Below, one piece after another: positions 16,474-28,141 of a stretch of 64,000 nt of DNA. The stretch is taken from NCBI GenBank assembly GCA_963834385.1, contig CAWIBO010000005.1, forward strand, positions 672,001 to 736,000, written 5' to 3'. The translations under genes were made by a program, and so were the position numbers. Numbering within the stretch: the stretch's first letter is position 1; every line of letters starts with the position of its first letter. Below the pieces are notes generated by a model. The model was not told the DNA's origin. It saw only the letters and a program-made list of their open reading frames with translations, and did no database searches. The DNA comes from an uncultured Verrucomicrobiae bacterium (lineage in GTDB: Bacteria > Verrucomicrobiota > Verrucomicrobiia > Chthoniobacterales > UBA10450).

Positions 16474-17361
16474 TCAGTGCTTCAGGGCCAGATCAACCCC
16501 GCCACGCGCGAAAAACGCATCCAACTCGGCCAGGACACGCTCCGGGCCGACATACTTGCCGTCCTGGTAACTGTCGGAGAGCACCCGTCCATTGGCGTCC
16601 ACCACCACGAGGCACGGAATCCCCTCCCCGGCGTAGCGGAGCAGGCCGGTCTTCTCCGCGACCTTCGGGAAGGCCACCGCCGGCCAGGGCATTTTCATTT
16701 CCCGCATGTATTTTTCCATCGCCCCTGCCGAACGATCGCCGCTGACGAAGATGACCTCGAAGTCGGGATGCTGTGGCGCGACGCGGTTATAATATTCGAC
16801 CAGTTGCGGGGTGAACCGGCGGCAGGGCCCACACCAGAGGGCGGAGAAATAGAGGGCAAAGATTTTTTTGCGGGCCACGGCGTCATCGAGGACGGAGGTA
16901 AGGGTGCCGTTGGTGCTCCGGACGAGATCACCGCGCAGGTGGCCGACGATCGCTTCCGAACCTGTGCTCGCCCGGGCCAGGGCGGCTGCGCTGGCCCGCT
17001 CCCGGGCCACCGTGTCCTGGTAAAGGGTGTTATGCTTCTGCGCCTCTTCGCGCATCGCCTGTTTGCGCGCGGCCATTGCGGCTTCATCCTGCCCGGGCGC
17101 GACGGCCAGACCCGGCGGGACCTTGTATTTCCCATCACGCAACACTTTGAGGAGCTGCGGGGTGGCTCCGGCATCGGCCACCATCTTTTCCGCGGCGCTG
17201 TCGGCATAACCGACGAAAAAGCGGCGCGCCACTTCCTGTTCCACCGCCCCGCTGGAGTAACCGCTGCGCAGCATCAGGCTGATATCCCGCGGCGTCAGCG
17301 GGGCCAGCGCCGCCTGGACCGCGCCGCACACGACAAGAAGAAGGCAGGCGAAGAAGCGCAT
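16474..17361 (-). CDS. exported thioredoxin-like (nucleoredoxin/tryparedoxin-type) protein
   Basis: Signal peptide MRFFACLLLVVCGAVQA; LYFSALWCGPC, FEVIFVSGD and GIPCLVVVD motifs. Confidence 0.82.
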   Translation of the reverse strand: MRFFACLLLVVCGAVQAALAPLTPRDISLMLRSGYSSGAVEQEVARRFFVGYADSAAEKMVADAGATPQLLKVLRDGKYKVPPGLAVAPGQDEAAMAARKQAMREEAQKHNTLYQDTVARERASAAALARASTGSEAIVGHLRGDLVRSTNGTLTSVLDDAVARKKIFALYFSALWCGPCRRFTPQLVEYYNRVAPQHPDFEVIFVSGDRSAGAMEKYMREMKMPWPAVAFPKVAEKTGLLRYAGEGIPCLVVVDANGRVLSDSYQDGKYVGPERVLAELDAFFARGGVDLALKH

Positions 17362-25619: not shown

Positions 25620-26906
25620 TTAATCCGCCAGCGCCGCCCGGATAACCTCGCCGGTCCGGGCCATTTCCTCCGGTCCGTGCGCGGTGGAGATGAACCCGGT
25701 CTCAAACTGGGACGGCGCGAGGTAAACGCCACCTTCCCGGCACGCATGGAAAAACCGGGCAAACCTCTTCAGATCGGACCGTTTGGCGTCCGCCAGCGAC
25801 CGGATCTCGCCCCCGGCAAAAAAGAGGCAGAACATCGACCCTAGCCGGTGCCATGTCGCCACCGTCCCGGTCTGGCGCAGGGCGTCGCGCATGGTTTCCT
25901 CCAGTTGCGCGCCCGAATCTTCCAGGCTTTTCCAGGCGTCCAGACGCTCCAGCTCGCGCAATTGTGCCAGGCCCGCCGCCAGCGCCAGCGGATTTCCCGA
26001 AAGGGTGCCCGCCTGGTAAACCGGCCCCGCGGGCGACAGTTTGTCCATGATCTCGGCCCGTCCGCCAAATGCTCCGACCGGCAGGCCGCCCCCGATCACT
26101 TTGCCGAGGGCCGTCAGGTCAGGACGAATTCCGTAGATTTCCTGCGCTCCACCTCGCGCGACACGGAACCCCGTCATCACTTCATCGAAGATCAACAGCG
26201 CACCCGCCCGCCGGCATTCCTCCTGAAGGGTGTCGAGGAACTCCGCAGTCGGAAAATAGAGACCGGCATTGGCGGGAACCGGTTCGAGGATGACACCGGC
26301 AACCTCGGCCCCATTGCGCGCAAAGGCTGCTCGCAAGGCGGCCGGGTCGTTAAAGGGGAGTGAAATTGTCAGGTCGGCAAACCCCCGCGGCACACCGGCG
26401 CTGTCCGGTTCCCCATGGGTCAGGGCACCGCTGCCGGCGCTGACCAGGAGGGAATCGACGTGGCCATGATAGCACCCTTCAAACTTGATGATCTTGTCCC
26501 GGCCGGTGAAACCGCGTGCCAGCCGCACGCACGACATGGTCGCCTCGGTGCCGCTGTTCACCATCCGGACCTTCTCGATTGAAGGCACCCACTGGCAGAG
26601 CAGCTCCGCCATCTCCACCTCCGCCGGGTTGGGCGTGCCGAAGCTCAGTCCGCGCGCCGCCGCCTCGGAGACGGCCTCGACCACGACTCTGGGGGCGTGT
26701 CCAAGAATGGCCGGACCCCAGGTGCCGACGTAATCGATGTACTCGTTGCCGTCGGCGTCCCAGATCCGGGCGCCCTCGGCGCGGGTGACGAAAAAAGGTT
26801 CGCCGCCGACGTTGCGGAAAGCGCGCACCGGGGAGTTCACTCCGCCCGGGATGCGCCGGAGCGCGCGTTGGAAGAGATCATGGGAGAGACCGGTCGGCGC
26901 GCTCAC
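25620..26906 (-). CDS. hemL: glutamate-1-semialdehyde 2,1-aminomutase
   Basis: PGGVNSPVRAF, NSGTEA, FEGCYHGH, FDEVMTGFR, GKVIGGG and QAGTLSGNP motifs; GTG start at 26906 inferred. Confidence 0.96.
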   Translation of the reverse strand: MSAPTGLSHDLFQRALRRIPGGVNSPVRAFRNVGGEPFFVTRAEGARIWDADGNEYIDYVGTWGPAILGHAPRVVVEAVSEAAARGLSFGTPNPAEVEMAELLCQWVPSIEKVRMVNSGTEATMSCVRLARGFTGRDKIIKFEGCYHGHVDSLLVSAGSGALTHGEPDSAGVPRGFADLTISLPFNDPAALRAAFARNGAEVAGVILEPVPANAGLYFPTAEFLDTLQEECRRAGALLIFDEVMTGFRVARGGAQEIYGIRPDLTALGKVIGGGLPVGAFGGRAEIMDKLSPAGPVYQAGTLSGNPLALAAGLAQLRELERLDAWKSLEDSGAQLEETMRDALRQTGTVATWHRLGSMFCLFFAGGEIRSLADAKRSDLKRFARFFHACREGGVYLAPSQFETGFISTAHGPEEMARTGEVIRAALAD

Positions 26907-27001
26907 ATGGAGTCCATAACGCGAAACTCCTCGCACTGCCACCGAGGGAAAGGTCGGGTAAGCTTCTCAAATGCGTTTGTTGTCCCGCTGAGCGGGGTTG
27001 A

Positions 27002-27031
27002 TTGACAGTGCTTCCTCTCCCCCCTTACTGT
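27002..27031 (+). promoter_or_regulatory. sigma70-type promoter of tRNA-Cys
   Basis: TTGACA (27002-27007), 18-nt spacer, TACTGT (27026-27031), 12 nt before the tRNA. Confidence 0.6.
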
Positions 27032-27043
27032 GCGCCTGCCTTC

Positions 27044-27115
27044 GGCGGGGTAGCCAAGTGGTAAGGTCGCGGTCTGCAAAACCGCTATTCGCGGGTTCGA
27101 TTCCCGCCCCCGCCT
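27044..27115 (+). tRNA. tRNA-Cys (anticodon GCA), CCA not encoded
   Basis: Acceptor stem GGCGGGG/CCCCGCC with U discriminator, anticodon arm GCGGT-CTGCAAA-ACCGC, T arm GCGGG-TTCGATT-CCCGC. Confidence 0.97.
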
Positions 27116-27710
27116 CTTCATCACCCGCGGTTCTTTCATGACAACGGGGTCTTCGTTCCACGGGCTGGTTCGATTGATGAGTCCGCCTCCCGGCGGCCTC
27201 ACCCCGGTCGGGGCTTCGTCAAACAAGCTCGCCTCCCGGCGGCTTGTTTCCCGCCCCCGCCTCTTCATCACCCGCGGTTCTTTCATGACAACGGGGTCTT
27301 GGTTCCACGGGCTGGTTCGATTGATGAGTCCGCCTCCCGGCGGCCTCACCCCGGTCGGGGCTTCGTCAAACAAGCTCGCCTCCCGGCGGCTTGTTTCCCG
27401 CCCCCGCCTCTTCATCACCCGCGGTTCTTTCATGACAACGGGGTCTTCGTTCCACGGGCTGGTTCGATTGATGAGTCCGCCTCCCGGCGGCCTCACCCCG
27501 GTCGGGGCTTCGTCAAACAAGCTCGCCTCCCGGCGGCTTGTTTCCCGCCCCCGCTTCATCACGGGTTCTTTCATGACAACGGGGCTCGTTCCACGGGCGG
27601 TTCAATTGATGAGTCCTCCGCGGCCTCACCGGTCGGGGCTTCGTCAAACAAGCTCGCCTCCCGCGGCTTGTTCCCGGCCTCTTCTTCATCCGCGGCCCTT
27701 TCGTGACAAC
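27101..27710 (+). repeat. tRNA-linked tandem repeat: 3 near-identical 147-bp units, 1 degenerate 129-bp unit and 1 partial unit
   Basis: Units start at 27101, 27248, 27395, 27542 and 27671; units 1-3 begin with the tRNA-Cys 3' 15-mer TTCCCGCCCCCGCCT; only one substitution seen among units 1-3 (27301). Confidence 0.95.
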
Positions 27711-27721
27711 CGGCGCCGAAA

Positions 27722-28141
27722 TCACTTCTCAAGGATCCAGCCGCCGGCGACGCGGCGCCGGACCGTGGTGTATCCTTTCGAACCCGGTTCGGGCCCGGGA
27801 TGCACTTTGATGGTGAGACGGCCGGTGGCCCGGTCGAGGAAAAATTCCTTGGCCGGCCAGGTGCCATCGCCGGGAACGAAGAGGTAGTCCGGGCTTTTGC
27901 CACGGTTTTCCGGGAGACGCCGGGCATGTCGCACGGATACGGAAAAGCTCTCCACTGTTTCCTCGTGAAACTCGTAGGCGGGCAGAGCAAGAATGTACTC
28001 CTCGATTGAGGCCGATGCGGACCATTCCTCCCGCGGCGTTTCTTGGTTCGTGATCTCCCGGCTTCGGTCGCCAGCGCAAGCGACCAGCAAACTGGCGAAC
28101 AGGCCACCGACAAGCAGCCGCAGAGCGTTTCCGGCGGTCAC
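27722..28141 (-). CDS. hypothetical lipoprotein
   Basis: Hydrophobic N-terminus with lipobox LLVAC; ATG overlaps the upstream TGA. Confidence 0.7.
   Translation of the reverse strand: MTAGNALRLLVGGLFASLLVACAGDRSREITNQETPREEWSASASIEEYILALPAYEFHEETVESFSVSVRHARRLPENRGKSPDYLFVPGDGTWPAKEFFLDRATGRLTIKVHPGPEPGSKGYTTVRRRVAGGWILEK

Follow-up and report, generated by a model that had tools for sequence, protein, structure and literature searches.

Tandem repeats behind a verrucomicrobial tRNA-Cys gene and a possible mobile origin of their hairpin core

Behind a tRNA-Cys gene of an uncultured Verrucomicrobiae bacterium lies a short array of tandem repeats, each opening with the tRNA's 3' end, and the locus raises the question of whether such units were inserted there, are kept for their effect on the tRNA transcript or simply multiplied in place. 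The window, i.e., the whole stretch of DNA analysed, comprises 64,000 nucleotides of genome G000 (2.9 Mb, 5 contigs, 89.6% complete). According to the available part of PMC8144298, tRNA-linked repeats (TLRs) go back to Egan and Landy (1978) and Rudd (1999), and for decades neither a function nor an origin was known for them.

The array behind tRNA-Cys

The earlier note on this DNA had described an array of 147-bp repeats anchored at tRNA-Cys, and ARAGORN and Rfam confirmed the anchor as tRNA-Cys(GCA) (Table 1). Its T-loop reads TTCGATT, with the TT core at 27101-27102. TRF detected a period of 147 with 4.0 copies at 27101-27676, and the alignment of the units reproduced the starts read from the sequence (27101, 27248, 27395 and 27542, with a remnant from 27671), the lengths (147, 147, 147 and 129 bp) and the single substitution of unit 2, which falls on unit position 54. 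Units 1-3 do open with the tRNA 3' end, over a 16-nt match, the copy in unit 1 being the tRNA itself. A weak 24-bp tandem repeat of 1.9 copies elsewhere in the window (16962-17007) is probably a low-complexity coding stretch.

Each unit consists of the tRNA 3' end from the TT of the T-loop onwards, a spacer X of ~50 nt, a copy of the 5' half of the T-arm with the T-loop, and a module Y of ~70 nt with three hairpins, which closes with TT ahead of the next tRNA tail. Model R1 of the module, of whose training set unit 1 is a part, scored 58.6 bits on the module of that unit (27173-27249).

The promoter boxes proposed upstream of the array are also present by sequence inspection: TTGACA at 27002-27007 and TACTGT at 27026-27031, separated by 18 nt. 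A consensus promoter scanner made no call for the tRNA-Cys boxes because the -10 box agrees at 3/6 positions, while a -35 box of the form TTGAC or TTGAT was found 5' of tRNA-Cys in the relatives compared.

Table 1. Features of the tRNA-Cys locus and its neighbourhood in the window
Feature	Position	Strand	Evidence
Candidate sigma-70-type promoter of tRNA-Cys	27002..27031	+	Sequence; -35 box kept in relatives; likely
tRNA-Cys(GCA), intact	27044..27116	+	ARAGORN; Rfam RF00005, 66.2 bits
Spacer X of unit 1, ~50 nt	27117..27166	+	Length conserved, sequence variable, no significant structure, no recognisable tRNA copy
Internal repeat of the T-loop and of the 5' half of the T-arm; the left TT core of the module is its end	27167..27175	+	Repeat-family search; comparison with relatives
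Module Y (unit 1) with three hairpins; its right TT core is at 27248-27249	27176..27249		Covariation; model R1
Unit 2 (tRNA 3'-end copy, X, T-loop copy, Y), substitution at 27301	27248..27394	+	TRF, alignment; R1 match 27320-27396
Unit 3, same sequence as unit 1	27395..27541	+	Alignment; R1 match 27467-27543
Unit 4, 129 bp	27542..27670	+	Alignment; R1 27.9 bits at 27605-27672
Worn terminal tRNA 3'-end copy and first part of a fifth X	27671..27716	+	Alignment
hemL (glutamate-1-semialdehyde aminomutase), the gene next upstream, pointing away from the tRNA	25620..26942	-	TIGR00713 above cut-off; context only
Downstream convergent 139-aa ORF, ending right at the array	27722..28141	-	No Pfam match; context only

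The alignment of unit 4 with unit 1 showed 11 deletions (18 nt in total), one substitution and no insertion, and such a deletion-only pattern occurred in 0/26 unit comparisons within 17 arrays of other genomes, where ~204 substitutions and 70 indel events were summed by hand. Because of this pattern, unit 4 is quite probably a consensus error of the 5-contig assembly rather than a product of biological decay. Public sequencing runs gave no reads across the array: none shared more than 10% of the window's words, and four that were aligned left it uncovered. The claim that divergence grows away from the tRNA was not upheld: unit 3 shows no change against unit 1, but unit 2 does, and the polarity of the array largely depends on unit 4, itself probably erroneous, which makes it weak. 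Arrays in relatives range from near-identical units to neighbours 15-23 substitutions apart. Divergence from unit 1 does increase with distance in the six arrays with at least three units, a trend that duplication of neighbours would produce equally.

Distribution among relatives and kinship with RtT

A pattern search for the T-arm, a spacer, the T-loop copy and the start of Y detected this arrangement in 103 of the 301 family genomes, which are kin and many of them incomplete, behind tRNA-Cys or tRNA-Arg(CCT). The same arrangement lacking Y occurred in 0/301. The array is a real, family-wide feature, and this single locus is ordinary within its family. Among the tRNA-Cys loci of 19 relatives, four (L007, L008, L009 and L013) carry the unit or its start, one stops at a contig edge and the remainder have no unit. 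A pattern scan of GTDB yielded 80 loci, at 27 tRNA-Cys, 20 tRNA-Arg(CCT), four tRNA-Phe, one tmRNA and one tRNA-Pro gene; the other 27 have no intact tRNA near, some being chance matches in genes and some tRNA fragments. The exact pattern matched 18 of 401 class genomes, and real-looking modules were present only in the own family (19 loci inspected), the other matches lying in coding sequence. The counts of relatives include the unpublished genomes G002, G007, G014 and G567, on which alone no claim rests; locus L425 of G567 entered the analyses of spacer folding, unit length and flanks.

Most relatives have one to four units at a locus. An array of eight units behind tRNA-Arg(CCT) (L211:1702-3010) has several types of X and a larger middle hairpin. 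G000 itself holds a further X+Y unit behind tRNA-Arg(CCT), whose T-arm equals that of tRNA-Cys. This lone unit (L005:1463-1760, contig C3) has no copy of the tRNA tail because a noisy 7-nt simple repeat replaces its right end. At tRNA-Ala(TGC) of the same genome (C5:409501-409573, - strand), 16 nt of the tRNA 3' end are repeated 81 nt downstream, and a short stretch of the tRNA end lies inverted between the copies; this is a second TLR-like unit, and it gave no R1 match.

The spacer is often identical between neighbouring units, and in some arrays it differs in each unit. An inverted T-arm copy in X was significant in E. coli and in 4/4 tRNA-Phe loci, and in 1/22 tRNA-Cys and 1/14 tRNA-Arg loci. 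Several readings of the spacer and unit were rejected. By eye, X could pass for a decayed or inverted copy of a tRNA, but its scores were at chance level on both strands, with cognate tRNAs and non-cognate ones alike; an inverted second module gave mean z-scores between -0.22 and 0.20, and a conserved RNA hairpin a mean z >0 on both strands (73 sequences). As for a tpr-like peptide repeat, the unit length, 138-154 bp among relatives, is a multiple of three in 20/59 units, as expected by chance, and neither open frame has a Pfam match. Readings resembling CRISPR, TIGR or cuckoo RNA fail on the frequent identity of neighbouring spacers and because no gene is conserved beside the arrays.

The structure of module Y was analysed in alignment A1, which contains 40 copies, 39 from 52 parsed loci and one from unit 1 of the window; duplicates, loci with no parsed tail and one mis-parsed locus were left out. 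A1 supports three hairpins, with 85.8% of cells pairing in the structure named from the consensus, changes on both sides in 11 of the 15 named pairs, and a covariation of 0.359, compared to 0.112 in shuffles and no more than 0.055 in slid controls. The loops of the middle hairpin, when read on the strand opposite the tRNA, start with G and end with A in 31 of the 35 parsed copies, the window's own middle loop being one of the exceptions. C-T mismatches, which are G-A on the opposite strand, outnumber A-G mismatches by 42 to 7. G-T and A-C wobbles favoured no strand (16:16), and folding with DNA parameters gave the minus strand the lower z-score in only 23/40 copies.

By the definition given in the available text of PMC8144298, the array is a TLR: it is placed directly 3' of the gene, where a tRNA or rRNA gene in an operon is named; its units end in the 3' end of that upstream gene (a 16-nt match in units 2-3, cognate in relatives); and its four units and remnant lie within the one to five tandem copies per locus. 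Likewise, the TLRs of E. coli are tandem units directly 3' of a tRNA, 1-5 per locus, each ending in that tRNA's 3' end. However, their tail copies measure 18-19 nt, compared to ~15 nt here, the hairpin core is reversed here, the spacer here has no inverted T-arm copy, and the present arrays occur in Verrucomicrobia at tRNA-Cys and tRNA-Arg(CCT).

A further comparison is offered by RtT (Rfam RF00391, rttR, tyrT-tyrV), in which a T-loop copy is likewise split by a multi-hairpin core followed by the tRNA 3' end, and in which the middle hairpin also has the form CCC-loop-GGG. In E. coli, the tyrT-tyrV region is laid out in the same way except for a reversed core. The module of unit 1 would correspond to the reverse complement of the RtT core, with three hairpins instead of four and a unit of 147 bp instead of 178 bp. 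The sense core with an inverted T-arm copy upstream, which characterises RtT, is not present at this locus. The Rfam model of RtT (gathering threshold 45 bits) matched neither strand of the window, nor four related loci, nor 41 family genomes, and the tRNA was the sole Rfam match in the window. Moreover, R1 matched one of four E. coli RtT units, and weakly (17 bits, E 0.043); a sequence-only model of the reverse copies matched that same unit and not the window, and 1/10 pairs was significant when five modules were compared with reversed E. coli cores.

Intermediates were obtained by scanning metagenomes for this Y end in reverse: the scan returned 121 stretches, 80 of them with DNA available and 27 of these 80 with a sense tRNA upstream. 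The T-loops of the 27 reverse loci read TTCGAAT in 24 cases, TTCAAAT and TTCGAGT in one case each, spurious in one and TTCGATT in none, while TTCGATT was found in 50/52 forward tRNA-anchored loci, an orientation rule that is partly built into both search patterns because each of them specifies the internal T-loop copy. What is not trivial is that one and the same Y end joins ATT on whichever strand of the T-loop offers it. Of the 27 reverse copies, 25 retain a GTC motif that the search pattern does not contain (shuffles: mean 1.7, maximum 5). RtT matches above the Rfam threshold were obtained in three of the 20 reverse loci scanned (L253, L261 and L289), and in all three R1 overlaps them on the opposite strand. 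The likeness to the E. coli tyrT repeats that the earlier note had drawn is supported by these intermediates and by the shared layout. The array appears related to RtT through them and is not classed as a member of it; the window module is a divergent variant, and the locus would fit a back-to-front TLR/RtT with a reversed core, copies away from tRNAs and TT junctions. A literature search, with most subscription journals outside its scope, found one paper on TLRs (PMC8144298) and no description of a reversed or non-tRNA RtT core. Both module orientations were seen at one locus behind tRNA-Pro(TGG) (L115:2355-2670), where a unit in RtT orientation precedes one with the forward module at an internal T-loop copy.

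This kinship brings in the reading of the unit as a domesticated tRNA trailer, kept for terminating or processing the tRNA transcript or for yielding small RNAs at the repeated 3' ends, as proposed for E. coli rrB. The available text of PMC8144298 describes rrA/B/F as transcribed, processed and bound by Hfq and CsrA, and the 3' repeat has been suggested there as an RNase E signal. Co-transcription and processing into defined RNAs have been shown for rtT as well as for rrA/B/F. A likely promoter lies upstream of the present array, and the third hairpin of Y with its T-run scored as terminator-like on the + strand in units 1-3, although a terminator in unit 1 would curb transcription of the later units. 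Because RtT and the present locus have the module in opposite orientations, the fold of the sense RNA would differ between them, and the folding of the whole unit is better than that of shuffles on the - strand (z -3.41) but not on the + strand (z -1.56). While the arrangement occurs in a third of the family genomes, about two thirds of those searched do without it, and in the module-rich genomes most copies of Y lie away from tRNAs. We consider a trailer function unlikely. The cassette of small RNAs that the earlier note had offered as its second option also appears weakened, because the strand with the G...A loops is the one opposite to the tRNA transcript at this locus and the sense strand in RtT.

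The hairpin module away from tRNA genes

Model R1 found Y in 56 of 60 relatives, with up to 30 copies per genome; an 11-mer scan proved too short for counting copies, and several of its G000 matches lay in genes. TT stands ahead of 35 of the 37 non-tRNA copies and at the end of 33 of them, against a background of 3.3%, with the qualification that R1 contains the leading ATT and the trailing TT and hence favours TT-bounded matches. When Y is excised together with one TT, a perfect REP-type palindrome is regained; locus L199 contains this palindrome twice in its empty form. In the integron on contig C5 of G000, two attC sites each hold a tandem pair of Y alone, and the other attC sites are free of it. 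Five equally scoring copies occupy separate sites in genome G442, one Y is nested inside another in L408, and tRNA-Phe fragments in L058, L075 and L089 carry Y precisely within the T-loop and lack X. Taken together, the REP and attC sites, the TT junctions, the separate copies, the nesting and the tRNA-Phe T-loops argue that Y behaves as an insertable unit on its own. What the earlier reading had missed is that the mobile-looking part seems to be this internal ~70-nt module, also found off tRNAs and in both orientations.

Two further loci are worth describing. The C5 integron (65000-82300; loci L164, L165, L217 and L225) includes an integrase and ~20 attC-like sites, in one of which an IS1111-type IS110 element is inserted. 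In L030:1427-2151, a chain of seven Y variants joined at TT cores, with no tRNA near, adjoins small ORFs that by eye resemble toxin-antitoxin genes.

On balance, we favour the explanation that the array consists of tRNA-linked repeats whose ~70-nt core is likely a small non-autonomous piece of mobile DNA. Y is likely to be a tiny mobile element because the core also sits inside other DNA hairpins. An enzyme acting in trans would move the module at the TT (or single T) core, and the composite unit of ~143 bp (tRNA 3' end, X, T-loop copy and module) would integrate at the TT of the T-loop, so that the tRNA would be restored and its old 3' end and flank shifted downstream. Near-identical neighbours, as in the window, would likely stem from local re-duplication, while arrays with a different X in each unit would likely record independent arrivals. 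Neither a circle nor an empty/filled pair of strains nor an RNA was observed. The host may tolerate the last hairpin or use it as a putative terminator.

G-N-A loops stabilise DNA hairpins. We lean towards recognition of Y as folded single-stranded DNA, on the strand with the G...A loops, because of this loop signature and because most of the rejoined targets fold as hairpins, the latter counted with no shuffled control.

A broader reading, which we put forward tentatively as possible, would see TLRs and RtT as footprints of an undescribed family of multi-hairpin mobile DNA of ~70 bp, active in soil Verrucomicrobia and Gammaproteobacteria and served by its own recombinase. It would insert wherever a hairpin loop offers a TT core, be it in REPs, attC sites, a copy of itself or, on either strand, the T-loop of a tRNA, and build a gene-less, tRNA-restoring circle of ~143 bp that stacks into arrays with variable spacers. 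The reversed RtT core and the REP and attC copies with clean TT junctions, together with the genomes of this one family that carry the arrangement, provide a large and easily sampled set, in which an 'orphan RNA' turns into predictions at the level of DNA: the circle junction, the core dinucleotide, the folded strand and the enzyme. A short recombinase that targets hairpin loops, if real, would be of interest for mobile-DNA biology.

Arrival at tRNA genes and the search for an enzyme

In L061, L069 and L087, the last unit is followed by a flank of island type that in unit-less genomes stands directly after tRNA-Cys (3 of 33 scored loci with units and 3 of 16 scored loci without). The copies of the tRNA at the island attR in L059, L066 and L113 span ~30 nt, compared to the ~15 nt from the T-loop TT in the unit; islands would therefore use the intact tRNA, and the units most likely arrived after them, on the tRNA side. 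In the latter three loci, the units were instead displaced from the tRNA by an island. Tail copies match whichever tRNA is resident, a variant one in L090 among them, and in many loci the tail behind the first unit is worn.

Insertion of a tRNA-targeting island, by a tyrosine integrase acting on attL and attR, restores the tRNA and displaces its 3' fragment. The unit would share both outcomes with such islands; it differs in measuring ~143 bp, in carrying no gene, in a crossover at the T-loop TT and in a repeat shorter than that of islands at the same tRNA. As to the insertion model in the earlier note, the flanks in L061, L069 and L087 support a small non-autonomous unit that inserts site-specifically at the tRNA and displaces the old flank. 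The supply of a classical tRNA-targeting integrase by G000 was not supported: the three tyrosine recombinases of this genome are XerD-like, XerC-like and an integron integrase by best score, and an integrase in cis or trans with a shared att core was not found in it at 89.6% completeness.

The same observations bear on the possibility that the unit is a mini-island of a tRNA-targeting tyrosine integrase, in which X would hold the att arm sites, the hairpin module would be a passenger and an island integrase would excise and re-insert the unit. The spacer length is narrow, with 71-75 nt between the TT cores in 57/59 units, tRNA-Cys and tRNA-Arg serve as island sites in the family, phage integrases stand beside L059 and L104, and the units lie between the tRNA and island-type flanks. 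However, the shorter tRNA copy of the unit, the lack of such an integrase among the three G000 matches, the lack of any Y-less unit in the 301 genomes and the occurrence of one unit type at two different tRNAs speak against it, and arm motifs repeated behind unit-less tRNAs were not evident by eye in the spacer alignments; we regard it as quite improbable. Slightly more doubtful still is an ancient, immobile repeat, expanded only through slippage or through unequal crossover at its 15-bp direct repeat and with a copy number that is partly an assembly artefact, which would suit the 99-100% identity of units 1-3, the likeness of unit 4 to an assembly error, a copy number known from the assembly alone and the negative enzyme search, but which leaves unexplained the separate G442 copies, the nested and tandem copies at TT cores, the unrelated X per unit and both orientations, and faces arrays of 2-4 units in many independent assemblies.

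For the favoured explanation, a module moved in trans, candidate enzymes were sought beside the copies. Apart from the IS110 element in an attC, G000 gave three Y1 hits and two GIY-YIG hits; two of the Y1 transposase domains (C2:733659 and C3:125156; L218 and L219) lie in open frames of ~710 aa. Y was found within 1.5 kb of 1/30 Y1, 1/30 GIY-YIG and 1/13 IS110 loci in five module-rich genomes and the G000 IS110, and none of the 74 ORFs scanned beside modules points to a dedicated enzyme.

IS110/IS1111 elements insert at a short core, and REP elements and attC sites are among their targets according to the available part of PMC11208160. Y resembles them in having a short core, TT, on both sides of most non-tRNA insertions, in its REP and attC targets and in tandem copies, which match the expected circle junction; it differs in having no recombinase gene, no room for a bridge RNA and several unrelated targets. 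Ends shared with an autonomous element encoding a DEDD recombinase and a guide RNA were not detected: half-module profiles at the 13 IS110 loci revealed no shared ends, the lone match being a module in the host attC, and the ends of the IS1111-type element in the G000 integron are by eye unlike Y. The module-rich genomes G015 and G442 (87% and 95% complete) had no IS110 match.

The second comparison is with REP/REPIN sequences and their RAYTs (TnpA-REP, HUH Y1; PMC8266576, PMC3733652). In the available parts of these sources, they are short, non-coding repeats that form hairpins and are proposed to be mobilised in trans in the form of single-stranded DNA, and TnpA-REP recognises hairpins and cleaves at a dinucleotide (PMC8266576). 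A REP as described there is a palindrome of 20-50 nt after a tetranucleotide, mostly GTAG; Y differs in its ~70 nt, its three hairpins, a TT instead of a CT core and the lack of a GTAG or CGTC tag at the module end in A1, and it is inserted into REPs rather than being one itself. The one Y1 locus, out of 30, with copies of Y nearby is L199, where a small transposase lies between Y-filled repeats of REP type. There (1150-2480), a 150-aa Y1 transposase of the IS200 family is placed between two near-identical long compound repeats, each with empty and Y-filled copies of one palindrome.
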